From positions 8,808 through 72,807 of the forward strand of contig CALIMJ010000038.1 of assembly GCA_938028835.1 (NCBI GenBank): a stretch of 64,000 nucleotides of DNA, read 5' to 3'. This stretch comes from an uncultured bacterium. Lineage in GTDB: Bacteria; Sysuimicrobiota; Sysuimicrobiia; Sysuimicrobiales; Sysuimicrobiaceae. The notes under the pieces were generated by a model that did not search any database, had not been told where the DNA came from, and saw nothing but the letters and a program-made list of their open reading frames with translations. Below are positions 183 through 16,298 of the stretch, piece after piece. The translations under genes and the position numbers were made by a program. Each line of letters opens with the position of its first letter. Positions within the stretch are counted from its first letter, which is position 1.

Positions 183-851
183 TTGCTGTTCCGGGATCGG
201 CGTCACGCGGGCGCGGTCCTGGGGGACCTGGTGCGACGGCACCTGTCCGCGGACGGTGCCACCGCCCTGGTCCTCGGGATCCCGCGGGGAGGCGTGGTGG
301 TGGCCTCAGAGGTGGCCAGGGCCTTGGGCGCCGAGCTGGACCTGGCGGTCCCCCGGAAGCTGCGCGCGCCGTACAACCCTGAGCTCGCGATAGGCGCCGT
401 GGCGGAGGACGGCAGCGTGTACGTGGACGAGCGGGTCACCACCTCCCTGCGGGTGCCGCAGGAGTACCTGCAGCAGGAGGTGGCCTACCAGCTGGAGGAA
501 ATCCGCCGGCGGCTGCAGGCCTACCGCCAGGACCGGCCGGCCCCCGAGGTTTCGGGGCGCAGCGTGGTGCTGGTGGACGACGGCATCGCCACCGGTTCCA
601 CCATGGTGGCGGCGGTGAGGTCCGTCCGCCGCAGGGGCGCAGCGCGGGTGGTCGTGGCGGTCCCCGTGGCTCCTCCGGAGGCCGTCCGGCGGCTGCGGGC
701 GGAGGGCTGTGAGGTACTGTGCGTCCGGGAAGAGCCCCTGTTCGTGGCAGTGGGCCAGTTCTACGAGGACTTCACCCAGGTCTCGGACGAAGAGGTCCAG
801 GCGCTACTGCAGGAGTTCTGGCGGAAAAAGGAGGCGAGCGGTGGACCGTGA
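183..851 (+). CDS. Phosphoribosyltransferase-family protein (COG1926-like predicted PRTase)
   Basis: TTG start 6 nt after AGGAGGAGG RBS; PRPP-binding-like VVLVDDGIATGSTM motif; 222 aa. Confidence 0.7.
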   Translation: MLFRDRRHAGAVLGDLVRRHLSADGATALVLGIPRGGVVVASEVARALGAELDLAVPRKLRAPYNPELAIGAVAEDGSVYVDERVTTSLRVPQEYLQQEVAYQLEEIRRRLQAYRQDRPAPEVSGRSVVLVDDGIATGSTMVAAVRSVRRRGAARVVVAVPVAPPEAVRRLRAEGCEVLCVREEPLFVAVGQFYEDFTQVSDEEVQALLQEFWRKKEASGGP

Positions 852-2421
852 GGGCGTGCTGGACCGCCTGCGGGAGGCCGCGGCCGAGCTGGAAAGGCTG
901 GTGGAAGCCCTACCGGAGGGGCTGCTGCGGGAGCCCCTGGAGCGGTGGACCCCGCTGGACGTGGCCGCGCACCTGGTGGGCTGGAACGGGCACGTGGCAC
1001 GCGGCCTACAGCAGCTAGTCCAGGGGCAGGCCCCCTTCTACCTCCCCCAGGCGGAGCAGGACTACGCGGAGCTGAACGCAGAGTCGGTGGCGCGGTGGGG
1101 CGGACTGGACCGGGCCGCGCTGCTGGGTGAGCTGCGGGCGTCCCTAGACGAGCTCCTGGTGTTCCTGACGTCGCTGCCTGCGGAACTGTGGGATCGGGAC
1201 TTCGGGGTCCGGCACCGGGACCGGCCGGTCACCGTGCTGTGGACTGTTGGCGCGCTGGCGCAGGACTACGTCTCGCGTACGGAGCGGTTGCGGGCCTGGG
1301 CCGCCCGGCGCGGGATCGAGGTGCCGCGGCAGGGCCTGCTCCGCACGGCTCTGTACCAACGGCACGTGCAGCTTGGGGCCCGCAGGGTGCCGTTTGCGGG
1401 CTGGGAGATGCCCGTGCAGTACCGGGGGATCGTGGCGGAACACCAGGCGGTGCGGACCTCTGCGGGGCTGTTCGACGTCTCCCACATGGGCGAGATCCGC
1501 ATCTGGGGGCCCGGCGCGCTGGCGACCCTCGACCGCTTGCTGTGTAACGATCCCCGGCGGCTCGCGGTGGGCCAGGCCCTGTACACGCCCATGTGCCGCC
1601 CCAACGGCGGGGTGCTGGACGACCTGGTGGTCTGCCGGCTGGGCGAGGACCGGTATCTCCTGGTGGTGAACGCCAGCCGGCGGGAGGTGGACAGCCAGTG
1701 GGTACGGGACCACGCGCGGGACTGCCGCGTCCGGGACGTGTCGTTCTTCACGTCGCTGTTGGCGCTGCAGGGCCCGAGGGCCCAGGAGTTGCTGCAGCGC
1801 CTCACCGAGTTTGACCTGTCCGGCCTTCCCCGCTTCCGCCTGACGCCGCCGATCCGGGTGGCGGGGGTCCGGGCTGTGGTATCGCGGACTGGATACACGG
1901 GCGAGGACGGTTTCGAAATCCTCACGGACTGGCTCGACGCGCCGCGGGTGTGGGACGCCCTGGTGGAGCTGGGAGCAACCCCCTGCGGCCTGGGCGCCCG
2001 CGACACCCTGCGGCTGGAGGCAGGCTACCTGCTGTACGGCCAGGACATGGACGAGTCCACCACCCCGCTGGAGGCGGGTTTGGGCTGGACGGTGAAACTC
2101 GAGGGCCGGGAGTTCGTGGGTGCTGGTGCCCTGCGCCGCCAGAAAGCGGAGGGGGTGCGGCGGCGTCTGTGCGGGCTCGTGCTGGAGGGGAGGGCCATCG
2201 CACGGTCGGGCTGTGCGGTGCTCCGCGACGGCGAGGTGGTGGGGCGGGTGACCAGCGGTACCTTCGGCCCGTCGGTGCAGCGCAGCATCGCCCTGGCCTA
2301 CCTACCCACGGAGCTGTCCGCAGCCGGTACTCGGGTGGAGGTGGCAGTGCGGGATCAGCGGGTCGCCGCGGAGGTGGCCAGCCTGCCCTTCTACCGGAGG
2401 GCTTCACGCGGTGGGATATAG
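841..2421 (+). CDS. gcvT: DinB_2/MDMPI-N-like domain fused in frame to glycine cleavage T-protein (aminomethyltransferase)
   Basis: GTG 841 sits 6 nt after GGAGG (830-834). N-terminal ~160 aa carry the WTPLDVAAHLVGW MDMPI_N/DinB_2 signature. From ~aa 165 the sequence is canonical GcvT (LYQRHVQLGARRVPFAGWEMPVQY ... TGYTGEDGFEI ... GARDTLRLEAGY). No stop codon and no ATG or good RBS at the domain junction (only GTG 1321 with a weak SD). Confidence 0.7.
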   Translation: MDREGVLDRLREAAAELERLVEALPEGLLREPLERWTPLDVAAHLVGWNGHVARGLQQLVQGQAPFYLPQAEQDYAELNAESVARWGGLDRAALLGELRASLDELLVFLTSLPAELWDRDFGVRHRDRPVTVLWTVGALAQDYVSRTERLRAWAARRGIEVPRQGLLRTALYQRHVQLGARRVPFAGWEMPVQYRGIVAEHQAVRTSAGLFDVSHMGEIRIWGPGALATLDRLLCNDPRRLAVGQALYTPMCRPNGGVLDDLVVCRLGEDRYLLVVNASRREVDSQWVRDHARDCRVRDVSFFTSLLALQGPRAQELLQRLTEFDLSGLPRFRLTPPIRVAGVRAVVSRTGYTGEDGFEILTDWLDAPRVWDALVELGATPCGLGARDTLRLEAGYLLYGQDMDESTTPLEAGLGWTVKLEGREFVGAGALRRQKAEGVRRRLCGLVLEGRAIARSGCAVLRDGEVVGRVTSGTFGPSVQRSIALAYLPTELSAAGTRVEVAVRDQRVAAEVASLPFYRRASRGGI

Positions 2422-4213: not shown

Positions 4214-5664
4214 GGGACTTCCCGTTGATCTTCGAGCGGAGCGTGCCGGGCCGCCGCGGGTTTGGGTTGCCGGAGTCGGACGTGCCCGCCCAACCCCTGG
4301 AGGAGCTGGTGCCGCCGCAGGCCTTGCGGAGGCGGCCGCCCGCCCTGCCCGAGGTGAGCGAGCTGGATGTGGTCCGCCACTACACCCGGCTCAGCCACCG
4401 TAACTTCTCCATCGACGAGGGGTTCTACCCCCTGGGCTCCTGCACCATGAAGTACAACCCCAAGCTGCATGAGGAGCTGGCGCGGCTGCCGGGCTTCGCC
4501 CGCCTCCACCCCTACACGCCCGAGGAGCTGGCCCAGGGAGCGCTGCAGCTCCTGTGGGAACTGGGGGAGGAGCTGCGGGAGCTGGCGGGGATGGACGCGG
4601 TGACCTTCCAGCCCGCCGCGGGCGCCCACGGGGAGCTGGTGGGCCTGCTGGTGATCCGCGCCTACTTCGCTTCCCGGGGCGAGAAGCGCACCCGGGTCAT
4701 CGTCCCGGACTCCGCGCACGGCACCAACCCGGCCACCGCGGCCATGGTGGGGTACGAAGTGGTCACCGTGCGATCCGACGCCCGGGGCAATCTGGACTTG
4801 GCGGCCCTGGAGCAGTACCTGGACGAGCGCACCGCGGCGCTGATGTTGACCAACCCCAACACCCTGGGGCTCTTCGAGGAACAGGTGGACCGGATCTCGG
4901 AGCGCGTGCACGCCGTGGGCGCGCAGATGTACCTGGACGGGGCCAACTTCAACGCCATGGTGGGCATCACGCGGCCCGGTGACCAGGGGTTTGACGTGAT
5001 GCACATGAACCTGCACAAGACCTTCTCCACTCCCCACGGCGGGGGCGGTCCCGGAGCCGGGGTGGTGGCGGTGAAGTCCCACCTGGAGCCCTTCCTGCCC
5101 GTCCCCGTGGTGGTCCGGGACGGTGACCGGTACCGGCTGGACTTCGACCGGCCGCAGTCGGTGGGCCGGGTGCGGGCCTTCTACGGGAACTTCGCGAACC
5201 TGGTGCGGGCGTACGCGTATCTCCGGACGCTGGGAGCGGAGGGGCTGCGGGCGGTGGCGGAACACGCGGTCCTGCACGCCAACTACCTGCGCGTCCGGCT
5301 GGCCCCGTACTACGAGATCCCGTACCAGCGCATCTGCAAACACGAGTTCGTCGCCTCAGGCGTGCGACAGAAGCGGCGGGACGGGGTCACGACCCGGGAC
5401 ATCGCCAAGCGGCTGCTGGACTACGGTTTCCACGCTCCGACGGTGTACTTCCCCCTGATCGTGGAAGAGGCCATCATGATCGAGCCCACGGAAACGGAGA
5501 GCCTGCAGACCCTGGACGCGTTCGTGGACGCCATGGTCGCCATCGACCGGGAGTGCCGGGAGGACCCGGAAAAGGTGCGCACCGCTCCCCACACCACCGC
5601 TGTGGGCCGCCTGGACGAGGTGCGGGCGGCCCGCCAGCTGGACCTCCGGTGGAGGCCTGCCTGA
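4210..5664 (+). CDS. gcvPB: Glycine dehydrogenase (decarboxylating) subunit 2 (PLP-binding)
   Basis: ATG 4210 overlaps gcvPA TGA (ATGA); [30 protein letters not shown]-lysine motif; 484 aa. Confidence 0.85.
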
Positions 5665-5704: not shown

Positions 5705-5720
5705 TAGAAAGCGTTTTCTA
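5705..5720. promoter_or_regulatory. AT-rich imperfect palindrome TAGAAAGCGTTTTCTA between gcvPB and the cupin-tctCBA operon (candidate operator)
   Basis: 16-bp inverted repeat (half sites AGAAAGC / GTTTTCT) followed by AAAAAA. It is one of the few AT-rich islands in a ~70% GC window. There is no downstream U-tract, so it is unlikely to be an intrinsic terminator. Confidence 0.35.
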
Positions 5721-5748
5721 AAAAAGGCCGTCGTCGGGGAGGTGCCCC

Positions 5749-6141
5749 TTGGAACCGAAGCCCGCGCGAATCCGGGTGGTGGACGTGGAGGGGTGGGAGT
5801 TTCCTGCGGGCCGGCGGACGCGGGTTTTCGCGGGTGTGGCGGGGCTACCCACCCGGAACTTCGTCATGGGCCAGAGCCAGATCTATCCGGGCGGTGGGAT
5901 CCCCCGACACGCGCACGAGAACGAGGAGGTCTACCTGATCCTCAAAGGTCGGGCGCACATGACGGTCGGGGACGAGACGTTCGAGGTCTCGGAGGGGACC
6001 GCGGTCTACCTGCCGCCCAACGTCCCGCACGGGCTGACGAACGCGGGGGAGGAGGACGTGCTCCTGCTGTTCGTGTACTCGCCGGCCACGTTGGTGTCCC
6101 ACTGGAGTGAGGAACGACAGAAAGGAGGGAGGAGGACATGA
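5749..6141 (+). CDS. Cupin-2 domain protein
   Basis: TTG 6 nt after GGGGAGG; cupin motifs HAHENEEVYLILKG ... TAVYLPPNVPHG; 130 aa. Confidence 0.65.
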   Translation: MEPKPARIRVVDVEGWEFPAGRRTRVFAGVAGLPTRNFVMGQSQIYPGGGIPRHAHENEEVYLILKGRAHMTVGDETFEVSEGTAVYLPPNVPHGLTNAGEEDVLLLFVYSPATLVSHWSEERQKGGRRT

Positions 6142-7139
6142 GCAAGCGGTGGGTTGTTCTGCTCCTCGTGACCGTGCTGGCCACGGCAGGGCTCGCCTCC
6201 GCGGCCCCAAGCTGGCGACCCTCCCGCCCCATTACCGTCATCGTGCCTTGGCCCGCCGGAGGCTCCACGGACATGACGGCCCGGGTGCTCGCGAGCCAGA
6301 TGGAGCGGTTTTTGGGGCAGCGCATCGTGATCGTGAACACACCGGGAGCCGGAGGCGCTATTGGGATGAAGGAAGCCTGGGATCGTCCACGGGACGGTTA
6401 CACCTGGGCGGCCAACTCCAGCACGGCGGTCATCAGCTACCCTGTACTCGGTCAGCTGGAGGTCACCCACCGTGACTGGCTGTACTTCTACGTCCTGTAC
6501 GCGCCCAACGTGATCGCCGTTCCCGCCAACTCGCCGTTCCGGACCGCGAAGGACCTCGCAGACGCCATGCGGGCGCGACCCGGAGCCGTTCGTGTCTCCT
6601 CCGCCGGGGCGGGCAGTTCTGGACACCTGGGTGCAGAGACATTCCGGCTTGTTGTGGGCGCTACCTACCGCCACGTGGCGTACGCGGGCGGCGCGCCCGC
6701 GGTGGTCGCGGCGGTCCAGGGGGAGGTGGAGGCGGTCATGCAACTTTCCATGGAAGTGGCGGAGATGCTCCGGGCAGGTCGTCTCCGGGCACTGGCGGTG
6801 ATGTCCCGTAGTCCGCTGACCATGGAGGGCTACGGGGTGATCCCCCCTATTAGCCAGGTGTTTCCTAACTTTCCGGAGACCGGTTCGTACTTCGGGCTGA
6901 TGGTGCCGAAAGACATGCCCGCTGACATCGTGGCTGCGGTGGAGGCGGCTTTTCGTCCCGCCTCAGAAGCTCCCGCGGTGCGTCTGTTCGCGCGCCAGAA
7001 CGGGGTGGTGGCGGTGAGCCTGTCGGGCCGTCAAGCTACAGAGGTGACGGAGCAGAAGGCCCGGCGGGTGGCCTGGACCCTGTTCGAGGCGGGGCTGGCG
7101 AAAAAGACGCCGACGGAGCTGGGGATTCCCCGGCCTTGA
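6138..7139 (+). CDS. tctC: Tripartite tricarboxylate transporter substrate-binding protein (TctC/Bug family)
   Basis: ATGA overlap with cupin stop; signal peptide, then the Bug-family core PITVIVPWPAGGSTDMTAR ... NTPGAGGAIG. Confidence 0.8.
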   Translation: MSKRWVVLLLVTVLATAGLASAAPSWRPSRPITVIVPWPAGGSTDMTARVLASQMERFLGQRIVIVNTPGAGGAIGMKEAWDRPRDGYTWAANSSTAVISYPVLGQLEVTHRDWLYFYVLYAPNVIAVPANSPFRTAKDLADAMRARPGAVRVSSAGAGSSGHLGAETFRLVVGATYRHVAYAGGAPAVVAAVQGEVEAVMQLSMEVAEMLRAGRLRALAVMSRSPLTMEGYGVIPPISQVFPNFPETGSYFGLMVPKDMPADIVAAVEAAFRPASEAPAVRLFARQNGVVAVSLSGRQATEVTEQKARRVAWTLFEAGLAKKTPTELGIPRP

Positions 7140-7140
7140 G

Positions 7141-7638
7141 GTGCAGGAGGGGGATGTGACGGAGGGGCGGCCGACAACGGCTTCCCTTGCAGACACGGCT
7201 GGCGCCGTCGTTCTGGCAGGGGTGGCTCTGGGATTCCTTAAGGCCGCGCTGGACATCCCTGCTGACACCGCCCTTTGGACCTGGTACGACTCTCCGGGGC
7301 TGACGCCGGCCCTGTTGGCCGGCGGCCTCTTGCTCCAGTCGCTGGTCCTCCTGGCGAGATCCCTACTGGCACCGGGGAGGGGAATCGGTGGGACGGCCGG
7401 GCTCAGGGGGGCGCGCTCGTGGGGCGCAGGACGCGTCCTGGCGGCCTTGGCTTTCTGCGTGGCCTTTGTGGCCCTCATGGGGCGGGTACCCTTCGGGGTC
7501 CTGGTGGCGGCGCTGGTGTTCGCCGTGACGGTGGCCTTCCGCGGAACGGACGCACCCCGTGCGGCGGTTCTGGCGGTGCTCACTGCGATCGGGGTCGTGC
7601 TGGTGTTCGGCCGGCTGTTTTTCGTGCCGCTGCCATGA
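7141..7638 (+). CDS. tctB: Tripartite tricarboxylate transporter small membrane protein (TctB family)
   Basis: Small 4-TM hydrophobic protein between tctC and tctA; start could be GTG 7141 or 7156. Confidence 0.6.
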   Translation: MQEGDVTEGRPTTASLADTAGAVVLAGVALGFLKAALDIPADTALWTWYDSPGLTPALLAGGLLLQSLVLLARSLLAPGRGIGGTAGLRGARSWGAGRVLAALAFCVAFVALMGRVPFGVLVAALVFAVTVAFRGTDAPRAAVLAVLTAIGVVLVFGRLFFVPLP

Positions 7639-9149
7639 ACGCGCTCGCATTCCTGTCGGAACTGGCGCGGCTGGCCACGGACCCTGCGACGGTGGCGCTG
7701 GTCCTCGTGGGCGCCCAGGTGGGCATCGTCTTCGGCATGCTGCCAGGGTTGACCGCCACCATGGCCATGTCGTTGCTGACCGGGCTTACCTTCTCGCTGC
7801 CGGCGAGTCAGGCGGTGGCGGTGCTGCTGGGAGCGTACGTGGGCGCCATCACAGGAGGGAGCCGGTCTGCGGTCCTCCTCAACATCCCAGGGACTCCGGC
7901 TCAGGCTGCCGTGTGCCTGGACGGGTTCCCGTTGGCCATGCAGGGCCGCGCGGCCGAGGCCATCGGGCTTTCTGTGACGGCCTCCACCCTGGGAACCCTG
8001 TTCGGCGTCGCGATGCTGGCCCTGTTCGCACCGCTCTTGGGTCAGGTGGCGCTCCAGTTCGGTACGTGGGAGTTCTTCTGGCTGGCGGTGTTCGGCGTCG
8101 TGATCGCCGGGAGCCTAACCGGGGGGCGGGACGCGCTGAAGGGGTGGATCGCCGGGACCCTAGGGCTTTTGCTGGCCACCGTGGGGCAGGACGGCATCCA
8201 CGCGTATCCCCGCTTCACCCTGGGCCGGGTGGAACTCCAAGGGGGGTTCGCCCTGATCCCGGTCCTGGTGGGCGCGTACGGGATGTCAGAGATCCTGACG
8301 GTCCTGCGCCGGAGTGAGCGCGCGGTGGTGCACACGCGCCTGGACCGGGTCCTGCCGCGTTTCAAGGAGGTGTTCCGGCATCGGTGGCACATCCTGAGGT
8401 CTGGACTCATCGGGACGTTCGTGGGGATCATCCCGGGTGTGGGCGAGGATATCGCCTCGTGGGTCTCCTACGACGTGGCCCGGAGGACAAGCCGGAGCCC
8501 GGAGCAGTTCGGGAGGGGATCCATCGAGGGGCTCATTGCGGCGGAGACGGGGGATAATGCGTGTATCGGGGGTGCGTGCGTTCCGGTGCTTACGCTCGGG
8601 GTGCCGGGAAGCGCGCCGGCTGCTGTACTGCTTGCCGCTCTGACGATCCACGGGCTGAAACCCGGCCCGCTGCTGGTGCTGCAGCACCCGGAGACCGTGT
8701 GGCAGGTCGTGGCGCTGTTCCTCCTGGCGACCCTGGCGGTATTCGTGCTCAGTTTGACGCTGGTGCGCCCCATGGTCCGGATCCTGCTGATCCCGCGGGA
8801 AGCGCTGATGCCCGTGGTGTATGTGCTGTGCGTGGTCGGGAGCTTCGCCATTTCGGCTCGGATCTTCGATGTGTGGGTGATGCTCGGGTTCGGCCTGCTG
8901 GGGTTTGCCCTGAGGGAGACGGGGTATCCGGTGGCGCCCCTGGTTCTGGGGTTCATCCTGGGGCCGATGGCGGACGACAACTTGCGGCGCGGGCTGGCCC
9001 TTACGGGCGGCGATCCGGCAGCGTTCTTCACACGGCCGATCTCCGCGGTCCTGGTGGCGCTCATCGTCTTCACGGTGGTCGGCCGGACGCTCCTGGGGTC
9101 GCGGGTCCGTCGGCGTGGGGCACGGGAAGAGGCGCCGGCCCTGACGTGA
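7635..9149 (+). CDS. tctA: Tripartite tricarboxylate transporter large permease (TctA family)
   Basis: ATG 7635 overlaps tctB TGA (ATGA); polytopic membrane protein, 504 aa; TctA-like glycine-rich repeats. Confidence 0.8.
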   Translation: MNALAFLSELARLATDPATVALVLVGAQVGIVFGMLPGLTATMAMSLLTGLTFSLPASQAVAVLLGAYVGAITGGSRSAVLLNIPGTPAQAAVCLDGFPLAMQGRAAEAIGLSVTASTLGTLFGVAMLALFAPLLGQVALQFGTWEFFWLAVFGVVIAGSLTGGRDALKGWIAGTLGLLLATVGQDGIHAYPRFTLGRVELQGGFALIPVLVGAYGMSEILTVLRRSERAVVHTRLDRVLPRFKEVFRHRWHILRSGLIGTFVGIIPGVGEDIASWVSYDVARRTSRSPEQFGRGSIEGLIAAETGDNACIGGACVPVLTLGVPGSAPAAVLLAALTIHGLKPGPLLVLQHPETVWQVVALFLLATLAVFVLSLTLVRPMVRILLIPREALMPVVYVLCVVGSFAISARIFDVWVMLGFGLLGFALRETGYPVAPLVLGFILGPMADDNLRRGLALTGGDPAAFFTRPISAVLVALIVFTVVGRTLLGSRVRRRGAREEAPALT

Positions 9150-9997
9150 GCGGCTTCGGGATGCGCCTGGCGTACACCGTAGCCGCTCCGGACGGCGGCG
9201 CCCCTGCCCTGGCGTGGTGCGGTCCGCTGGAGACTGTCCTAGAGAGGGTGCGCGTGGCGGGGTTCGAGGGGGTCGAACTGTACGTGGTGGACCCCGGCCG
9301 ACTGGACCCGGTGCGGTTGGCGGGACGCATCGCGGAAGCGGGGCTGACCCCAGCGGCCGTGTGCACGGGGGAAGTCTACGGGCGTGACGGGTTACACCTG
9401 TCCGCCCGCGAGGAGGAAGTGCGGAGGGCGGCGATGGCGCGGAGCCGGGCGATCATCGACCTCGCGGCCGCCCTCCGGGTGCCCGTGAACGTGGGCCGGC
9501 TGCGCGGTCCCGCGGCTGGAGACCCGGGCGCCGCGCGCCGCGCGCTGGACGCCCTGGGTGAGCTGGCCGCGTACGCGTGGGCCCGCGGGACTTACCTGGT
9601 CCTCGAACCTGTGAACCACCACGAGCTGGACTTGGTCAACACTACCTCGGAGGGGATCTCCTGGGTCCGCCAGGTGAACCACGAGGGGCTGCGTCTCATG
9701 CTGGACCTGTATCACGTGCAGCTCGGCGACGTATCTGTACCGGCGGCCTTCGTGGCCGCATGGGCCGCCGGGGTCCTGGCGCACGTGCACGTGTCCGACA
9801 GCAACCGGCTTGCCCCCGGATGGGGCCACTTCCCCCTCAGGGACGTGCTGGCGGTCCTGGAAGCCGTGGGTTACACAGGCTGGGTCACGGTGGAATGTTT
9901 GCAGCGTCCGAGCCCCGAAGCGACGGCCCGTCAGGCTGGAAGCCACCTCCGCAGGCTTCTGGAGGAGCTGCAGGGGAGCCCCGCCGGGCTCCGATAG
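9146..9997 (+). CDS. Sugar phosphate isomerase/epimerase (xylose-isomerase-like TIM barrel)
   Basis: GTGA overlap with tctA stop (alternative ATG at 9161); AP-endonuclease-2/XylA-like TIM-barrel pattern (LVLEPVNHHE..., HVHVSDSNR); 278-283 aa. Confidence 0.6.
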   Translation: MSGFGMRLAYTVAAPDGGAPALAWCGPLETVLERVRVAGFEGVELYVVDPGRLDPVRLAGRIAEAGLTPAAVCTGEVYGRDGLHLSAREEEVRRAAMARSRAIIDLAAALRVPVNVGRLRGPAAGDPGAARRALDALGELAAYAWARGTYLVLEPVNHHELDLVNTTSEGISWVRQVNHEGLRLMLDLYHVQLGDVSVPAAFVAAWAAGVLAHVHVSDSNRLAPGWGHFPLRDVLAVLEAVGYTGWVTVECLQRPSPEATARQAGSHLRRLLEELQGSPAGLR

Positions 9998-10000
9998 GAT

Positions 10001-11161
10001 TCAGGCGTCCACTCCAGCCAGCCTGAGGAAGGCCCGCATACGGTGGGCCGCGAGCTCCGGGTCGTGAAGGAGTCCCGCGCGATCGGCCAGGACAAACACC
10101 TCCACCAGATGGAGAACAGACCGGGCGCTCTCCATCCCTGCCACCATGCGGAAGTGAGGTTGGTGTCCGTTGATGTAGGCCAGGAAGACCAAGCCGGTCT
10201 TATACCGGTAGGTGGGGGGTCCGAAGATGTGGCGGCTAAGTGGAACACACGGTGCCAAAATCTCCTCGTAAGCCGCCGCGTCGCCCCGGTCGAGGGCTTG
10301 CAGCGCCGCAGAAGCCGCGGGCGCGATGGCATCGAAAATGCCCAGGAGTGCGTGGCTGATATGCTGACCGTCTCCCCGGATCAATTCCACGAAGTGGAAG
10401 TCGTCTCCAGTGTAGACCCGCACGGACGGGGGCAGGCGGCGCCGAAGCTGGACCTCGACCTCCGGATCCAGCAGGGAGACCTTGACCCCTTCCACGCGAT
10501 CCGCGTGTTCGCCCACGAGATCCACGAAGAACTCGAGCGCGTCGCGGGGGTCCCGGTAGCCCCAGTAGCCGCGCAGCGAGGGGTCGAAGGCCTCACCCAG
10601 CCAGTGGACCATTACGCGCCGGCTGGCAGACCGGAACAGGCTGACGTAGACCCTGCGGTAATCCCCGGGCTCCCGGGCTGCCGCACACAGGGCCCGGCTG
10701 CTCATAAGGACCGCCTGGGCCCCGTGGCCCTCAACCCACTCCAGCTGCCGGCGGTAGCTGGCCTCCACCTCGTCAAGGCTGGCCTGGCCGGGAGCGAGAT
10801 CGTCGGTGTTCACGCCGCACACAACAGGCGCGTGGGAGGGGTTCGCAAGTTCAGCTGTCCGGCGGCAGAGTTCCATGGCCGTGGCGGGGTCGAGGCCCAT
10901 CCCCCGTTGCGCGGTGTCCATGGCTTCCGCCACGCCGAGGCCCCAGGACCATAGGTGGGCTCGGTACGCTAGGGTAGCCTCCCAGTCCAGATGACACTTC
11001 CCTTCCTCCGGCTCCCGCCAGGGGTCTGCCACCACATGGGCGGCGGCGTAGGCGACCCGGGAGCGGATCGGATCCCGGGGACGGGAGAAAGCCCGGGGAG
11101 GACCGAGTCGGTACCGGACCAGCGATCGGTCAGGCTGGGGCAGGAGTACCTCTACGGCCAT
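10001..11161 (-). CDS. DUF993-family protein (function unknown)
   Basis: ATG 11161 is 2 nt after the stop of the upstream Gfo/Idh/MocA gene; 386 aa. I recall DUF993-family proteins pairing with Gfo/Idh/MocA oxidoreductases, but cannot verify that here. Confidence 0.5.
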   Translation of the reverse strand: MAVEVLLPQPDRSLVRYRLGPPRAFSRPRDPIRSRVAYAAAHVVADPWREPEEGKCHLDWEATLAYRAHLWSWGLGVAEAMDTAQRGMGLDPATAMELCRRTAELANPSHAPVVCGVNTDDLAPGQASLDEVEASYRRQLEWVEGHGAQAVLMSSRALCAAAREPGDYRRVYVSLFRSASRRVMVHWLGEAFDPSLRGYWGYRDPRDALEFFVDLVGEHADRVEGVKVSLLDPEVEVQLRRRLPPSVRVYTGDDFHFVELIRGDGQHISHALLGIFDAIAPAASAALQALDRGDAAAYEEILAPCVPLSRHIFGPPTYRYKTGLVFLAYINGHQPHFRMVAGMESARSVLHLVEVFVLADRAGLLHDPELAAHRMRAFLRLAGVDA

Positions 11162-11163
11162 GG

Positions 11164-12312
11164 CTAGAGCTCCAGCTCCGGTAGGTCTACCCAGCGCCGC
11201 TCCCGCCAGGAGGTATAGGCCGCTTCCACCACCTGGAGCCCTCGGGCGCCCTCGAGGAAATCCCAGTGGTACGGGGCTCCGCCCAGGGCGTGCTGTAAGA
11301 AGAGCTCCCACTGCACCTTGAAGGCGTTGTCGAAGGGCTCGTTGTCGGGGACAGGAGTCCAGTCCGCGTAGTAGTCGTGATCCTTGGGAATGTCCGGGTT
11401 CCACACCGCCCGGGGCGTGCAGACGCGGTGCTGCACGTAACAGTCCCGCAACCCCGCCACCGCGCTCCCGTGGGCCCCGTCCACCTGGATCTGCAGCAGG
11501 TCATCCCGTCGGACCCGCACAGTCCACGAGGACAGGACGTGGGCGACGATCCCGCCGTCCAGCTCCAGAATGGCGTACGCCGCGTCCTCCGCCGTGCAGG
11601 CGTAGGGCCGGCCGCGCTCGTCGTAGCGCTGTGGAACGTGGGTGGCCCCCAGACACACGAGGGCTCGGATGCGCCCGAACAGGTTCTCCAGAACGTACTG
11701 CCAGTGGCAGAACATGTCCAGGACGATGCCGCCGCCGTCCTCTCGGCGGTAGTTCCACGACGGCCGCTGGGCCGGTTGCCAGTCACCCTCGAACACCCAG
11801 TAGCCGAACTGCATGTGGACGGATAGGACCCGGCCGAAGAAGGTTGAGTCCACCAGCCTCTTCAACTTGCGAATTCCCGGCAGGAACAGCTTGTCCTGCA
11901 CCACCCCGTTGGCCACCCCCTTCTGCCGGGCAAGGCGTGCCAGGTCCAGGGCGGACGCAAAATCCGAGGCCACCGGCTTCTCGCAGTACACGTGTTTGCC
12001 GGCGGCGAGGGCGCGTCGGACGGCCTCCGCTCGGGCTGAGGTGACCTGCGCGTCGAAGTAGATGAGGGCGTCAGGGTCCGAGAGCGCCTCGTCCAGGGAA
12101 GCCGTCCACCGCCGGATCCCGTGGGCTCGAGCAAGGGCCTGCAGCTTTTCGGGGTCGCGGCCCACCAGCACGGGCTCGGGGACCACTGTGGTCCCGTCTG
12201 CGAGGGGAACACCCCCCTGTTGCCGGATGGCCAGGATGGAGCGGACCAAGTGCTGGTTGCGTCCCATCCGGCCGGTAACCCCGTTCATGAGAATGCGCAC
12301 GGTACGGGTCAT
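11164..12312 (-). CDS. Gfo/Idh/MocA-family NAD(P)-dependent oxidoreductase
   Basis: ATG 12312 (MTRTVRILMNGVTGRMG Rossmann motif) after a GGAGA RBS. The six-frame track starts earlier at a TTG. C-terminal alpha/beta domain is typical of the family. Confidence 0.75.
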   Translation of the reverse strand: MTRTVRILMNGVTGRMGRNQHLVRSILAIRQQGGVPLADGTTVVPEPVLVGRDPEKLQALARAHGIRRWTASLDEALSDPDALIYFDAQVTSARAEAVRRALAAGKHVYCEKPVASDFASALDLARLARQKGVANGVVQDKLFLPGIRKLKRLVDSTFFGRVLSVHMQFGYWVFEGDWQPAQRPSWNYRREDGGGIVLDMFCHWQYVLENLFGRIRALVCLGATHVPQRYDERGRPYACTAEDAAYAILELDGGIVAHVLSSWTVRVRRDDLLQIQVDGAHGSAVAGLRDCYVQHRVCTPRAVWNPDIPKDHDYYADWTPVPDNEPFDNAFKVQWELFLQHALGGAPYHWDFLEGARGLQVVEAAYTSWRERRWVDLPELEL

Positions 12313-12392
12313 GGAAAGGGTTTTCTCCAAGAACCTCCCTGTTTCCTCCCGCTTCCGGGCCTGTCGCCACTTTGTCTCGCGGGTGGGCGGTG

Positions 12393-12413
12393 TTGACAGG
12401 ACCGTTACCCTAG
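12393..12413 (+). promoter_or_regulatory. Candidate lacI-side promoter/operator: TTGACA (12393-12398) and perfect 10-bp palindrome ACCCTAGGGT (12404-12413)
   Basis: Lies in the divergent 119-bp intergenic region between the Gfo/Idh/MocA operon and lacI. No convincing -10 at 17 bp. Also a repeated GAAAGGGNTTTC motif at 12314 and 12415 abutting both start codons. Confidence 0.25.
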
Positions 12414-12431
12414 GGTCTGAAAGGGATTTCC

Positions 12432-13451
12432 ATGCCGACGCTGGCAGAAGTGGCGAGGACGGCCGGGGTGTCCCTGGCGACGGCCAGCCGGGTTCTCAGC
12501 GGCAGCGGCTACCGGGTCCGGCCGGAGCTCCGGCGGAGGGTGCTGGCCGCCGCGCGGAGCCTGAACTATGTGCCCAACGCCCACGCGCAGGCCCTGGTCC
12601 GGGCGCGCACGCAGGTGGTGGGGGTGGTCGCCCACGACGTCAGCGACCCGTACTTCGCCGAAATCGTACGGGGCGTACAGCGCATCGCCAGTCGGGCGGG
12701 ACGGCTCACCATCATCTGTAACACCTACCGCGATCCCGATCGAGAGGTGGAGTACGTGCGGCTCCTCCACGCCCAGCGGGTGGAGGCCATCGTGCTGGCT
12801 GGGAGCGGGCGCGACGACCGTAGCTACGGGCAGAAGATGTTGGCGGCCGTGGAGGCTTACCTGGCCACCGGGGGGCGGCTGGTGGTGATCAGCCGTCACC
12901 ATTTACCCGGTGACGCGGTGCTGCCGGACAACTTCGGGGGAGCCAGGGCCCTGGCCCACTACCTGGCGGATCTGGGGCATCGTAGGGTAGCCATGATCGC
13001 GGGGCCTCCACGGCTGACAACCACGCGGGATCGGGTGGAGGGCTTCCGCCAGGGGTTGTCGGAGAGAGGCATCCCCCTGGATCCCACCTGGGTGTTGCCC
13101 GGCGACTTCGGCCGAGACAGCGGAGAGGCGGCGGCGGAAGAGCTCCTCCGCAGAGGGCTGCGTGCAACTGCCATCTTTGCCCTGAACGACCAGATGGCTG
13201 TGGGAGCCCTGGCAGCCCTTCGGCGGGCGGGGGTCCGGGTCCCCGACGACGTCTCCCTAGCGGGTTTCGACGACATGGCGATCGCTCGCGACGTCACACC
13301 CACGCTGACCACGGTCCGCATCCCCATGGAGGAGATGGGGGTCCGGGCCATGGAGCTGGCCTTGGAGAACTCCGGCGAAGACCTTCGCGTGGCGTTTTTC
13401 CCCGCTGTGGTGATCCCCAGGGAAAGCACGGCTCCACCGAAGGGGGCTTAG
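12432..13451 (+). CDS. LacI-family transcriptional regulator
   Basis: N-terminal HTH (LAEVARTAGVSLATASRVLSG), periplasmic-binding-like effector domain; 339 aa. Confidence 0.85.
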   Translation: MPTLAEVARTAGVSLATASRVLSGSGYRVRPELRRRVLAAARSLNYVPNAHAQALVRARTQVVGVVAHDVSDPYFAEIVRGVQRIASRAGRLTIICNTYRDPDREVEYVRLLHAQRVEAIVLAGSGRDDRSYGQKMLAAVEAYLATGGRLVVISRHHLPGDAVLPDNFGGARALAHYLADLGHRRVAMIAGPPRLTTTRDRVEGFRQGLSERGIPLDPTWVLPGDFGRDSGEAAAEELLRRGLRATAIFALNDQMAVGALAALRRAGVRVPDDVSLAGFDDMAIARDVTPTLTTVRIPMEEMGVRAMELALENSGEDLRVAFFPAVVIPRESTAPPKGA

Positions 13452-13456
13452 CAGAG

Positions 13457-14602
13457 GTGGGGACGGATCTGCAGGCGCGGATCGCTCGGGTGGATGTGTA
13501 CGTGGTGGGACTCCCGGTCCGGCGGCCCTTCGCCATCTCCGGAGGAGCGGTGACCCGTGTGGGGGAACCCGCGGTGCGCGTGCTGGTCAAGGTTACCGAC
13601 ACGGACGGCGTGTACGGCTGGGGTGAGGCGACTCCGTTGCCGTCGTGGACGTACGAGACCACCGAGTCCATCGTGGGGACACTGCGCGGCTATCTGGCCC
13701 CCGCGGTTCACGGCCATCCGCTCTGGGATCTGGATGGGCTCCACCGGACGTTCGACCGCGTCATCCAGCGTGGCTTCTCCATCGGTGCCCCGCTGGCCAA
13801 GGCTGCCCTGGACGTGGGCGTCCACGACCTTGTGGGCCGGCGTCTCGGGGTGCCCGTGGGTGTCTGGCGCGGATCCCGGAGGCGGGAGGAGATCGAGCTG
13901 GCGTGGGTGGTGTCGCCCGAAAGCGTGGAGGCGGCGGAGGCCAGCGTGGAGGAGGGACGGGCTGCGGGCTACCGCGCGTTCAAAGTCAAAATCGGACTGC
14001 ACACGGAAGACGAAGATGTGGCCATCGTCCGGGCTGTCCGAAGGCGTGCGGGATCCGCTTTCCTGTGGGTGGACGCCAACCAGGCTTACCGACCGCAGGA
14101 AGCGCTGCGGGTGGCCCGGCGACTTTCCGAGCTGGACGTGGCGGTTTTCGAGCAGCCCTTGAGGAGCAACGACCTGTTCGGCCTCGCGTGGCTGCGCGAG
14201 CGGTCACCGATCCCCGTTGCCTTGGACGAGACCCTGCGACACCCGCAGGACCTGCTGACCGCGGTTCGACTCGGGTGTCTGGACGTGGCTATCGCCAAGG
14301 TCCAGCGCAACGCGGGCCTGTGGTTGTCGTGGAGACTCTGCGCGCTCGCGGAGGACTCCGGGATCGACCTGATGGGATCCGGGCTCACCGACTCCGACCT
14401 TGGGCTGGCTGCCTCCCTGCACCTGTTCAGTGGTTTCGGCCTCCGCCATCCGGCGGACCTGAACGGGCGGCAGTTCCTTGAGAGCCCGTACGCGGTGCAG
14501 ACCGTTCGCGTGGAAGGCGGGCGCGCCACGGTCCCCTTGGGCCCTGGGCTGGGGGTGGAGGTGGACGAGGGGGCCGTCCGGCGCCTCAGCCTCTCGATCT
14601 GA
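13457..14602 (+). CDS. Enolase-superfamily enzyme, MLE/dipeptide-epimerase-like subgroup
   Basis: FKVKIG (KxK) motif, barrel acid residues (WVDANQAY ... VFEQPL ... ALDE); 381 aa; directly downstream of lacI. Confidence 0.7.
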   Translation: MGTDLQARIARVDVYVVGLPVRRPFAISGGAVTRVGEPAVRVLVKVTDTDGVYGWGEATPLPSWTYETTESIVGTLRGYLAPAVHGHPLWDLDGLHRTFDRVIQRGFSIGAPLAKAALDVGVHDLVGRRLGVPVGVWRGSRRREEIELAWVVSPESVEAAEASVEEGRAAGYRAFKVKIGLHTEDEDVAIVRAVRRRAGSAFLWVDANQAYRPQEALRVARRLSELDVAVFEQPLRSNDLFGLAWLRERSPIPVALDETLRHPQDLLTAVRLGCLDVAIAKVQRNAGLWLSWRLCALAEDSGIDLMGSGLTDSDLGLAASLHLFSGFGLRHPADLNGRQFLESPYAVQTVRVEGGRATVPLGPGLGVEVDEGAVRRLSLSI

Positions 14603-14663: not shown

Positions 14664-16298
14664 GTGACCCTTTCGAGCCGGCTGGTGGTGGTCACCCTCG
14701 TGGCGGTGATCCCCGTGGCCCTGAGCCTGGGCTACACGTACCGCCGGGAGCGAGCAAGACAGCTGGTCCTCGTGGAGGATCGGGCACGGCGATCCGCGGA
14801 GCTCCTCGCCGCGGACACCGGCCGCCTGCTGGAGGACGCCCGGCGGGAACTGGTGCGCCTGGGTCTGGTTGGTGCGGTCCGCGAGGGGGAGCGGGAGGGC
14901 TGCAACCAGCGGCTCGCCCGCACCGTGGCGGACGGCCAGCTGTTTGCAGGCGTCCTGAGGGTGGACCGCTGGGGTCGGCCGGTGTGCGCCTCCCACCCGA
15001 TGGCTGCCATGGGCTGGGCCAGCCAGCCCGCCAGCCGGGCGCTGGTGCGGACGGCGAGGTTCTCGGTGGGCGTGTACGTAGACGGAGGTAGTGCCTTGGG
15101 CCTAGCGGTGGCCGTACCCGTTCTGGACGCCAGGTACCGGTCGACCCTCGGCACCCTGCTGGCCGCAGTGCACCGAGACCGCCTGCAGGGCCTGGTACGC
15201 GGCCGGCCGGCCGTGGCGGGGGAGACCTGGGCGGTAGTGGACCCGCGCGGGCGGGTGCTGGCCGCCTGGCCAGAAGGCGCTGCCCAACGACGGAGACCCT
15301 GGGCGGTCTGGGACCGGCGCGACATCCCGTCGGACGGGGTAGCACAAGCCGGCTGGACTTCCGCAGCGACCTTCCGGCGGAGCAAGGGCCACGCGACGGC
15401 CCACGTGGCCCTGGCGGATGGCGCGGTCGTGGCGGTGTGGGCGGTATCCGAGGACGTGTTGTTCGCGGACCTGCGGGCCGCAGCGCGGAACAGCTGGCTG
15501 GCCCTGGGGTTGGCCGCGGTCTGCGCGGCGGCGGTGGTGTGGGGGGCGAGCCGGTGGCTGGTGTTGCAGCCCGTGCAGGCTCTCGTGCGGGCGGCCGAGC
15601 GGGTGCGCGCAGGGGACCTGTGGGCGCGTACGGGGCTGGCCTACGACGGCACCGAGCTGGGCTCCCTGGCCGCCGCCTTCGACGAGATGGTGGACGCCCT
15701 CCGGGCCCGGGAGGCGGAGCTCGCCGCGGCCTATGACACCACCCTGGAGGGGTGGTCCAGGGCCCTGGATCTGAGGGATCGCGAGACCCGGGGACACACC
15801 CTGCGCGTGGCCTCCCTAGCGGTGGAACTGGCCCGGGCCATGGGCGTGCCAGAGGATCAGGTGGTGCACCTTCGCCGGGGGGCCCTCCTGCACGACATCG
15901 GCAAGATGGCCATCCCCGACGAGATCCTCCACAAGCCGGGGCCCCTGACGCCCGAGGAGATGGCGGTCATGCGGCGCCACCCCCAGTACGCCTACGAGCT
16001 CCTGTGGCCCATCCACTACCTGCGTCCGGCCCTGGACATCCCCTACTGCCACCACGAGAGGTGGGACGGTACAGGCTACCCCCGCGGCCTGCGGGGAGAG
16101 GAGATCCCCCTGCCGGCCCGGATCTTCGCGGTGGTGGACGTCTGGGACGCGCTTTCGAACCCTCGGCCTTACCGGGCCGCCTGGCCGCGGGACCAGGTCC
16201 GGGCCTACCTGCAGGAGCAGGCCGGCCGCCAGTTCGACCCTGAGGTGGTGGCAGCGTTCCTGCGGCTGCTGGACGGCCGGGAAGCGGAAGCGAGCTAG
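14664..16298 (+). CDS. Membrane sensor - HAMP - HD-GYP c-di-GMP phosphodiesterase-type signalling protein
   Basis: GTG 6 nt after GGGGAGG; N-terminal TM helix, ~270-aa extracytoplasmic region, second TM, HAMP, then an HD-GYP domain (LHDIGKMAIPDEIL ... HHERWDGTGYPRGL). Confidence 0.75.
   Translation: MTLSSRLVVVTLVAVIPVALSLGYTYRRERARQLVLVEDRARRSAELLAADTGRLLEDARRELVRLGLVGAVREGEREGCNQRLARTVADGQLFAGVLRVDRWGRPVCASHPMAAMGWASQPASRALVRTARFSVGVYVDGGSALGLAVAVPVLDARYRSTLGTLLAAVHRDRLQGLVRGRPAVAGETWAVVDPRGRVLAAWPEGAAQRRRPWAVWDRRDIPSDGVAQAGWTSAATFRRSKGHATAHVALADGAVVAVWAVSEDVLFADLRAAARNSWLALGLAAVCAAAVVWGASRWLVLQPVQALVRAAERVRAGDLWARTGLAYDGTELGSLAAAFDEMVDALRAREAELAAAYDTTLEGWSRALDLRDRETRGHTLRVASLAVELARAMGVPEDQVVHLRRGALLHDIGKMAIPDEILHKPGPLTPEEMAVMRRHPQYAYELLWPIHYLRPALDIPYCHHERWDGTGYPRGLRGEEIPLPARIFAVVDVWDALSNPRPYRAAWPRDQVRAYLQEQAGRQFDPEVVAAFLRLLDGREAEAS

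Follow-up and report, generated by a model that had tools for sequence, protein, structure and literature searches.

A predicted LacI-controlled catabolic locus with an uncharacterised Gfo/Idh/MocA-DUF993 enzyme pair in an uncultured bacterium of the Sysuimicrobiaceae

Gene content and layout of the locus

We examined a 64,000-nucleotide stretch of contig CALIMJ010000038.1 from an uncultured bacterium of the Sysuimicrobiaceae (the window; 70% G+C) for the contents of positions 5705 to 14602, which hold a real nine-gene locus for nutrient uptake and breakdown. Its genes encode a cupin, the three subunits of a tripartite tricarboxylate transporter (TTT), a xylose-isomerase-like TIM barrel, a DUF993 protein, a dehydrogenase of the Gfo/Idh/MocA family (hereafter Gfo), a LacI/GalR-family repressor and an enolase-superfamily enzyme. 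Reading of the open reading frames (ORFs) together with Pfam profile searches placed all nine genes at the coordinates and in the families that a first-pass annotation, made from the sequence without database searches, had given them. Gene content, the conservation of modules, the fold and conserved lysine of DUF993 and the operator pattern described below are results of computation.

The transport operon lies on the forward strand and opens with the cupin gene (5749-6141; Pfam Cupin_2, 73 bits), which starts at a TTG codon preceded by a GGGGAGG ribosome-binding site and encodes a monocupin of 130 amino acids. It is followed by tctC (6138-7139; Pfam TctC, 138 bits), encoding the periplasmic or lipid-anchored binding protein, tctB (7141-7638; Pfam TctB, 39 bits), encoding the small membrane subunit, and tctA (7635-9149; Pfam TctA, 476 bits), encoding the large membrane subunit; for tctB, gene callers favour a start at 7156 (gene calls of L001 and L002). 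All three subunits score above their Pfam cut-offs, and their genes, which overlap or abut in the order C-B-A, stand together in one operon, as those of a TTT do. The TIM-barrel gene (9146-9997, forward strand; Pfam AP_endonuc_2, 116 bits; alternative start ATG 9161) closes the operon. Direct reading of the junctions gave an ATGA overlap at 6138 between cupin and tctC, a gap of 1 nt between tctC and tctB, a second ATGA overlap at 7635 between tctB and tctA, and a GTGA overlap at 9146 between tctA and the TIM-barrel gene.

Three nucleotides separate the stop codon of this operon from the convergent stop codon of the DUF993 gene (10001-11161, minus strand), whose 386-residue product matches PF06187 over its full length (residues 6-384) at 555.3 bits, above the gathering cut-off of 24 bits. 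Upstream of it on the minus strand lies the Gfo gene (PF01408, PF02894 and PF22725), which extends from 11164 to either 12330, a TTG start following GGGAGG, or 12312, an ATG start. Only 2 nt lie between the Gfo stop and the DUF993 start, and the two genes are translationally coupled. The junctions of the transport operon bear out the coupling proposed for it in the first-pass annotation. Divergent from the Gfo gene, the repressor gene (12432-13451, forward strand; Pfam LacI helix-turn-helix and Peripla_BP domains) is separated by 5 nt from the enolase-superfamily gene (13457-14602, forward strand; MR_MLE_N and MR_MLE_C, 168 and 52 bits). Between positions 5000 and 15500, no Rfam family, riboswitch or other RNA element, was matched. 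A scan of the locus for promoters and terminators returned nothing exceeding the level of shuffled sequence, and no terminator was found between the convergent TIM-barrel and DUF993 genes.

Predicted operators of the LacI repressor

Operators of LacI/GalR-family repressors are usually near-palindromes with a central CG. A sequence of this design, the AT-rich 16-bp palindrome O1 (TAGAAAGCGTTTTCTA, 5705-5720), in which seven of eight base pairs match, lies 29 bp 5' of the cupin start codon and had been flagged in the first-pass annotation as a candidate control site. Several observations strengthen that suggestion. When the entire window was searched for O1 with up to three mismatches, the 5' end of the Gfo gene yielded the sole other match, O2 (TGGAAAGGGTTTTCTC, 12312-12327), and 100 shuffles searched in this way yielded none. 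Two relatives, with proteins about 80-85% identical to those of the window, keep O1, as TAGAAAGCGTTTTCT in L083 and as the mirror-image variant GAGAAAACGCTTTCT in L085, and the intergenic DNA flanking it has diverged. O2 is retained in L085 and, shortened by 1 nt, in L083 and L084.

The repressor has the helix-turn-helix and the periplasmic-binding-protein-like core of the LacI/GalR family, and the predicted operators fall within the 14-18-bp, central-CG palindromes found near the promoters that such proteins regulate. As in other LacI/GalR systems, a 16-bp palindrome with a central CG and AT-rich half-sites covers the promoter or 5' end of the operons presumed to be regulated, and the regulator is divergent from its target. 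In L030, L086, L087 and L088, which come from other phyla, an orthologous LacI (51-59% identity) stands next to the enolase gene, and these orthologues share the recognition helix VSLATASR. The LacI intergenic regions of L087, L088, L086 and L030 contain the same GAAAGCGCTTTC core as O1, and palindromes of the CAGAAAGCGCTTTCTG type stand in the divergent promoter regions beside the orthologous LacI in all four clusters. The palindrome is CAGAAAGCGCTTTCTG itself in Actinomadura and occurs as TAGAAAACGCTTTCCA and TAGAAAACGCTTACCA in a Bacillota metagenome-assembled genome (MAG), while the LacI promoter regions of Amycolatopsis and Micromonospora carry repeated sites of the type CTGAA(A/T)GCGCTTTC(T/A)G. 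We found no description of an orthologous group with the VSLATASR helix and the GAAAGCGCTTTC core, and in this the regulator differs from known LacI/GalR systems.

It is therefore very likely that the palindrome is a LacI operator common to the two divergent catabolic operons. Taken together, the O1/O2 pattern, the footprints in relatives and the related palindromes beside LacI orthologues with the VSLATASR helix argue computationally for one LacI regulon of three transcription units, namely cupin-tctCBA-TIM, gfo-DUF993 and lacI-enolase. A further candidate, O3 (TGAAAGGGATTTCC, 12418-12431), abuts the lacI start codon. It has three mismatches relative to WGAAAGCGCTTTCW, a stringency at which 1.56 matches are expected by chance, and its position is retained in relatives (as AGAAATCGCTTC in L085); this weakly suggests a possible operator and autoregulation of lacI. 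Just 5' of lacI there is also a conserved TTGACA (12393-12398) followed by a perfect 10-bp palindrome, ACCCTAGGGT (12407-12416). This element (12393-12416) is kept in L083 and, with one mismatch, in L085, and may be part of the lacI promoter or the site of a second regulator.

The enzymes and their recurrence across phyla

The crystal structure 4dnh (S. meliloti SMc04132; 1e-118), of an orthologue of DUF993, is deposited as an "uncharacterized protein". The family is a large one with tight conservation: it is matched by over 8,000 clusters at 90% identity, which collapse into few at 50% identity. For both DUF993 and its Gfo partner, identities across phyla are about 50-60%. In an alignment of 20 DUF993 sequences from several phyla (mean column identity 74%), lysine K227, in the motif G-x-K-x-S, and the segment T251-G-D-D (G252-D-D), 25 residues apart, are invariant. 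E. coli DHDPS has the same spacing between its Schiff-base lysine and its GDD motif. When aligned by hhalign, K227 and the GDD of DUF993 fall on the IKEA lysine and the TGND of canonical DHDPS, although with a probability of only 55%. The protein has the (beta/alpha)8 barrel and C-terminal helical domain of the DHDPS/NAL fold, superimposable on it, and at the sequence level it appears to have the strand-6 lysine followed some 25 residues on by G-(D/N)-D. Enzymes of this superfamily, of which L-KDP dehydratase is a member, work via a lysine Schiff base (PMC6336799).

Despite these features, the relationship of DUF993 to DHDPS is visible only by fold search and hhalign. The DHDPS Pfam model PF00701 gave no match to DUF993 at E values up to 0.01, phmmer was marginal (E about 0.05), and a profile search of solved structures found no link. 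The DHDPS/NAL tyrosine (YNxP) and the carboxylate-binding motif GxTGE are also replaced, the corresponding segments reading HWLGE..FDP and AEAMDTAQRG. DUF993 is therefore a structural relative of these Schiff-base 2-oxo-acid lyases and dehydratases and not a member of the DHDPS family proper; it appears to be a divergent (beta/alpha)8 barrel of the DHDPS/NAL type, with K227 as the candidate Schiff-base lysine. The first-pass annotation held that DUF993 has no assigned reaction, and this stands. We found no functional study or relevant open-access paper naming DUF993, PF06187, IPR009334 or 3OQB, although a study of plasmid pAO1 (discussed below) may propose a role for the DUF993 gene there; SMc04132/33 appear in the literature only in a PhaR transcriptome table, and 4dnh and 3oqb were both deposited without a function. 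A search for gene fusions found unusually long "DUF993" proteins without a second Pfam domain. The family also occurs on 148 plasmids and megaplasmids in PLSDB, mostly from Sinorhizobium and Rhizobium.

The Gfo protein combines an N-terminal Rossmann domain with a C-terminal alpha/beta domain and carries the EKP motif of its family in the segment VYCEKPVA. The structure of an orthologue, 3oqb (548 bits), was deposited as an "oxidoreductase". The best NCBIfam match of the Gfo protein of the window is inositol 2-dehydrogenase (IolG), at 54 bits against a cut-off of 355, followed by levoglucosan dehydrogenase at 44 bits. The enolase-superfamily enzyme belongs to the MLE subgroup, with both MR_MLE domains and the KxK lysines K176/K178, metal ligands D206, E232 and D257, and K281 invariant among 11 orthologues, so that the KxK-type, MLE-like assignment made at the outset holds. 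All of its NCBIfam equivalog matches are below cut-off (muconate cycloisomerase TIGR02534, 194.5 versus 334.95 bits; two others, 125.8 and 105.9, each versus 500), and it reaches the equivalog threshold of none of the characterised MLE functions (muconate cycloisomerase, Ala-Glu epimerase, OSBS/NSAR, hydroxyproline dehydratase). The best solved-structure match has 156 bits.

For the TIM barrel, the label "sugar-phosphate-isomerase-like" given in the first-pass annotation had to be revised. Its best NCBIfam match is the IolO 5-keto-L-gluconate epimerase model NF041099 (179.9 bits, below the cut-off of 300) and its best solved structure TM0416 (1e-35); psicose 3-epimerase and IolE also match, and fructoselysine 3-epimerase does so weakly. 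These matches point to an IolO-like epimerase of the keto-acid (ketose-3-) type. Identity of the usual DUF993-linked TIM as a candidate for this protein was rejected, since the two are at most 30% identical against a median of 47% within that subfamily; its members score 30-47 bits with the IolO model, on which the window protein scores 180, and match QuiC, Hyi and IolO weakly. No gene of the usual subfamily was found elsewhere in the 64 kb. More distant homologues of the window TIM barrel (31-40% identity; L091 and L092) stand in unrelated, uninformative contexts. The cupin has HxH...E and H metal motifs, and among solved structures it matches BacB (1e-15) and the Mn cupin TM1459 best. No entry named KdgF was among the best 60 of its 71 solved-structure matches, so that this search lends no support to a KdgF-like reading. 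The best solved structure for TctC, 4x9t, is uncharacterized, and solved binding proteins gave no hint of a ligand; the NMT1-type matches are pyrimidine or nitrate binders with low scores.

A scan for DUF993 with one genome per species returned 80 loci, from Gemmatimonadota, Bacillota, Chloroflexota, Actinomycetota, alpha-, beta- and gamma-Proteobacteria, Deinococcota, Verrucomicrobiota, Acidobacteriota and Rokubacteria. In 71 of these, spanning at least ten phyla, DUF993 is directly preceded by a Gfo orthologue (57-67% identity) in the same orientation, and in 70 it is directly followed by an AP_endonuc_2 TIM barrel of about 280 amino acids. The recurrence of DUF993 beside Gfo/Idh/MocA dehydrogenases, proposed in the first-pass annotation, is thus borne out by the neighbourhood comparison, whereas its description of the locus as an orphan is not, as the other modules recur across phyla as well. 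Conservation as a unit holds only in part. All nine genes are kept together in close Armatimonadota relatives, which says little about function because the housekeeping flanks are shared too; outside these relatives the full set was found in none of the loci scanned, and only modules recur.

Orthologues of the enolase gene (62-68% identity) are common in Actinomycetota and also occur in a Bacillota MAG, and in Actinomycetota the LacI-enolase pair (51-68% identity) is again found beside Gfo-DUF993-TIM. Four contexts were examined. In Amycolatopsis, Actinomadura and Micromonospora, LacI-enolase is divergent from an NMT1-type ABC transporter, standing in place of TctCBA, which is followed by Gfo-DUF993-TIM; in the fourth, a 5.3-kb Bacillota contig, LacI-enolase lies opposite the same ABC transporter and the contig ends inside the transporter genes. 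TctCBA in turn replaces the ABC system beside the Gfo-DUF993-TIM triad in Marinobacterium, Limnohabitans and Pseudolabrys. The TctA genes beside Gfo-DUF993 in L009, L074 and L082 are 53-61% identical to that of the window, and in Limnohabitans an IolO-like TIM barrel follows tctA, as it does here. The cupin-tctCBA-TIM block recurs in two metagenome contigs, L089 and L090 (cupin 58-62%, TctC 74%, TctA 77% and TIM 52-53% identity), with the cupin homologue directly 5' of tctC and the TIM homologue at the same operon position. There it is accompanied by LacI and two Gfo paralogues, and the position of DUF993 is taken by a canonical DHDPS-family gene, which supports an analogous role for DUF993. 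The locus is therefore a mosaic of modules, LacI and enolase with Gfo-DUF993 on the one hand and cupin-tctCBA-TIM on the other, each conserved across phyla.

Several of these loci have features of their own. The gene order of the paralogous cluster in L089 (2225-12489) and L090 (862-11139) is LacI, canonical DHDPS, Gfo, cupin, TctCBA, Gfo, IolO-like TIM and a GlpD-like FAD dehydrogenase, with glycerophosphodiester phosphodiesterase and HAD genes on the opposite strand, and their LacI has its own site, CTGAAAGCG(C/T)TTGCAT. In 18 proteobacterial loci an ORF of about 465 amino acids without a Pfam match lies directly upstream of Gfo-DUF993 (for example L074:7404-8819, L054:7279-8676 and L017:7399-8787; 15 further loci). 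Its KxK, D, E, DE and K residues are in register with the enolase superfamily (hhalign probability 94.5%, E 8e-8), and it looks like an unrecognised, divergent branch of that superfamily. In Psychrobacillus soli (L027:7328-8936) DUF993 has a cupin 47% identical to that of the window 2.3 kb on its upstream side, and after the cupin come genes for a family III CoA-transferase and a Gfo paralogue and then DUF993 itself, a different accessory set that hints at CoA-ester chemistry in that variant.

The genes flanking the locus are gcvPB, which ends at 5664, and a gene starting at 14664. The latter (14664-16298, forward strand), directly 3' of the enolase gene, encodes a membrane signalling protein with HAMP and HD (HD_5/HD-GYP-like) domains; relatives add a dCache domain, and the position is kept only in close relatives. 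Upstream of the locus (about 841-2421, forward strand; L001:18741-20321), GcvT is fused to an N-terminal DinB_2/MDMPI_N domain in a protein of 526 amino acids. The fusion is present in this MAG and in GCA_053491015, and the relative GCA_025060455 has a plain GcvT of 367 amino acids.

Pathway readings and their significance

Non-phosphorylative routes for sugars and sugar acids with a DHDPS/NAL-fold enzyme at their end include the oxidative uronate pathway (Udh, Gli, Gci, KdgD and KGSA dehydrogenase), the Weimberg and Dahms pentose routes, with a Gfo-type aldose 1-dehydrogenase, an acid-sugar dehydratase and L-KDA dehydratase or KDG aldolase, and the E. coli glucarate/galactarate route (GudD/GarD, GarL, GarR and GarK). 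The enzyme families of the locus are the cast of such routes, and related clusters add genes for handling three-carbon products. Therefore, we favour a reading in which LacI controls the import and degradation, without phosphorylated intermediates, of an anionic and polyhydroxylated compound, most likely a sugar acid (uronate, aldarate or keto-aldonate), with DUF993 acting as a Schiff-base lyase or dehydratase on a 2-oxo acid, and give this reading an even chance of being correct. As in the known routes, there are no kinases for the intermediates, and related clusters carry a glycerate kinase (above the NCBIfam cut-off in L009 from Marinobacterium, in L030 from Micromonospora and on pAO1), a tartronate-semialdehyde-reductase-like gene (L074, Limnohabitans) or aldehyde dehydrogenases (close to five of the loci returned by the genome scan, and also on pAO1). 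The differences are considerable, however. No orthologue of the named enzymes is present, and all NCBIfam equivalogs are below cut-off; the enolase-superfamily enzyme is of the MLE and not the MR, GlucD or ManD subgroup; DUF993 is unmatched by the DHDPS Pfam model and has neither the tyrosine nor GxTGE; uptake is by a TTT system; and a small cupin and an IolO-like TIM barrel come in addition.

From this cast we infer the class of substrate, the sequence of the steps and each single reaction. A carboxylate would be bound by TctC and imported by TctBA, and an inducer would free LacI from the GAAAGCGYTTTC operators 5' of the cupin and Gfo genes. The MLE-type enzyme could then abstract the proton alpha to the carboxylate, leading to dehydration, lactone ring-opening or epimerisation; Gfo would interconvert a hydroxyl and a carbonyl; and the IolO-like TIM barrel, perhaps with the metal cupin, would epimerise or isomerise beside that carbonyl. 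Finally, K227 of DUF993 may form a Schiff base with a 2-oxo(-3-deoxy) acid, with cleavage or dehydration yielding pyruvate and a C3 fragment ending as glycerate, or a semialdehyde. The C3 end products are suggested by the accessory genes of the related clusters just listed. An organic or sugar acid, the substrate class put forward in the first-pass annotation, is the best-supported one, given the carboxylate-type transporter, the enolase chemistry and the nearest characterised relative of the metal-dependent TIM barrel, IolO/TM0416, which epimerises 5-keto-L-gluconate. Tct-type binding proteins with a solved structure and a named ligand bind carboxylates, e.g. terephthalate, and enolase-superfamily chemistry needs a carboxylate.

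Two other systems bear on this reading. IolO of the Thermotoga maritima inositol route has a 35%-identical homologue with the same activity, LguG, in the L-glucose route of Luteolibacter, where it acts as 5-keto-L-gluconate 4-epimerase (PMC12632266). The window TIM barrel resembles these enzymes by its best matches, and their substrates, keto sugar acids, would fit carboxylate uptake. However, it is below the IolO cut-off, altronate dehydratase, KDG kinase and KDPG aldolase are not present, and the TIM barrel usually linked to DUF993 is of another subfamily. The other system lies on the nicotine plasmid pAO1 of Paenarthrobacter nicotinovorans (L093, NZ_CP089294.1 58362-79570), the only homologous cluster we found with an experimental mention in the literature; a passage of PMC8190789, citing Mihasan 2013 (Res Microbiol 164:22), calls it an "oxidative xylose degradation pathway". 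It has homologues of Gfo (52%) and DUF993 (48%) in the same order and tightly packed, as in the window, but differs in having a sugar ABC transporter, a GMC oxidoreductase, an aldehyde dehydrogenase (AldH), a glycerate kinase and a GntR-type regulator, and in lacking TctCBA, the enolase gene, the cupin and the TIM barrel. Its genes run from the sugar ABC transporter through the GMC oxidoreductase, AldH, Gfo and DUF993 to the glycerate kinase, so that AldH and glycerate kinase stand on either side of the pair.

Several points weigh against the sugar-acid reading. No enzyme of the locus reaches the NCBIfam cut-off of any characterised isofunctional family. Known acid-sugar dehydratases belong to the MR, GlucD and ManD subgroups, not to MLE, whose enzymes act mostly on muconates, N-acyl amino acids and dipeptides. 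With the tyrosine and GxTGE motif of the DHDPS/NAL enzymes lost, the substrate of DUF993 could be a ketone without a carboxylate, and the TIM subfamily that accompanies it in 70 of the 80 loci is not in the window. Many triad loci (Paenibacillus, Chloroflexota, Verrucomicrobiota and pAO1) have sugar-type ABC transporters and no enolase gene, so the core may act on a neutral sugar derivative. Neither a glycerate kinase nor an aldehyde dehydrogenase homologue was found in the 64 kb. O2 differs from O1 at three positions, apart from the 1-nt deletion in the L083 copy. Nor are the conservation counts independent events, because it was these genes that led to the orthologous clusters, and Bradyrhizobium-type loci account for 13 of the 18 enolase-like cases.

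An alternative is a route for a cyclitol or a neutral keto- or anhydro-sugar, which we regard as unlikely. Here Gfo would oxidise a ring hydroxyl, as IolG and levoglucosan dehydrogenase do, the TIM barrel would dehydrate or epimerise beside the new ketone, as IolE and IolO do, and DUF993 would form a Schiff base with a plain ketone leading to retro-aldol cleavage or ring-opening; the enolase-superfamily enzyme and TctCBA would be lineage-specific additions feeding a carboxylated precursor into the core. The best matches of Gfo (IolG and levoglucosan dehydrogenase) and of the TIM barrel (IolO, psicose 3-epimerase and IolE) fit such a route, as do the weak matches of the DUF993-linked TIM subfamily to QuiC, Hyi and IolO, the replaced carboxylate-binding residues of DUF993, the xylose-related name given to the pAO1 cluster in the cited passage, with its sugar ABC transporter, and the many triad loci that combine sugar-type ABC transporters with AraC or LacI regulators and additional Gfo paralogues but have no enolase gene. 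Yet the Gfo and TIM matches are all far below their NCBIfam cut-offs, import in the window and at several other loci is by Tct transporters, for which carboxylates are the known ligands, and a carboxylate-requiring, enolase-type partner is present in 18 loci of the scan, in L030 and in the loci found by lookup. Moreover, no iolB-, iolC-, iolD- or iolJ-type gene was seen in any locus examined.

The MLE assignment could instead point to a modified amino acid (an N-acyl or N-carboxyalkyl amino acid, a dipeptide-like or hydroxyproline derivative, or an Amadori or opine compound), with the MLE-type enzyme as racemase or epimerase, DUF993 resembling the DHDPS-fold 1-pyrroline-4-hydroxy-2-carboxylate deaminase, and Gfo and the TIM barrel working on a sugar-like or hydroxylated side chain. 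Characterised MLE relatives include L-Ala-D/L-Glu epimerase, N-acylamino-acid racemase, N-succinyl-amino-acid racemase and cis-3-hydroxy-L-proline dehydratase, the TIM barrel weakly matches fructoselysine 3-epimerase, and NMT1- and Tct-type binding proteins take various small charged organic molecules. We consider such a substrate improbable, as no conserved cluster contains an aminotransferase, amino-acid oxidase or dehydrogenase, amidase or deacylase, the accessory genes are a glycerate kinase and a tartronate-semialdehyde-reductase-like gene, and LacI control with Gfo and xylose-isomerase-like enzymes is typical of carbohydrate routes. Still harder to credit is a chance juxtaposition of three independent units, i.e. 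a Tct operon for an unrelated acid, a Gfo-DUF993 pair and a LacI-enolase pair. The absence of a locus with all nine genes outside close Armatimonadota relatives, the absence of the usual TIM from the window and the imperfect copying of O1 in O2 would agree with it, but the modules pair elsewhere (LacI-enolase with Gfo-DUF993, Tct with Gfo-DUF993, and cupin-Tct-TIM with LacI, Gfo and a DHDPS-fold enzyme), and the operator motif is common to both catabolic operons and matches the predicted operators of orthologous LacI clusters.

There is also a wider proposal, which we advance tentatively and with less assurance than the sugar-acid reading. Gfo-DUF993, usually with the dedicated TIM barrel, may be the core of a widespread and undescribed catabolic route in at least ten phyla. 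DUF993 would then be a new functional class of Schiff-base enzyme, descended from the DHDPS/NAL fold but with the tyrosine and carboxylate-binding motifs of that fold replaced, and its reaction or substrate would be new to the superfamily. The window would then hold a variant in which an acidic precursor is fed into the core through a Tct importer, an IolO-like epimerase, a cupin and an MLE-type enzyme.

Repressor-controlled clusters for sugar-acid catabolism are a known kind, and the existence of another will not surprise a specialist; the core enzyme pair of this one is uncharacterised in spite of its very wide distribution. Crystal structures of DUF993 and Gfo (4dnh and 3oqb) have been available for over a decade, neither with a function, and the present analysis names a specific candidate chemistry for DUF993, a Schiff base of K227 with a 2-oxo acid. 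The value of the locus lies in the cheap and concrete experiments that it offers for a large orphan family with structures. Ligands of the binding proteins (TctC, NMT1-type and sugar-type) would name the substrate, the effector of a LacI repressor with a defined predicted operator would name the inducer, and Sinorhizobium meliloti, Bradyrhizobium, Paenarthrobacter pAO1, Marinobacterium and Micromonospora are cultured carriers suited to genetics. Assignment of a function would change no general principle, but it would extend the repertoires of the DHDPS/NAL superfamily and the MLE subgroup by a reaction and would close a gap in the annotation of carbon sources for soil and rhizosphere bacteria.

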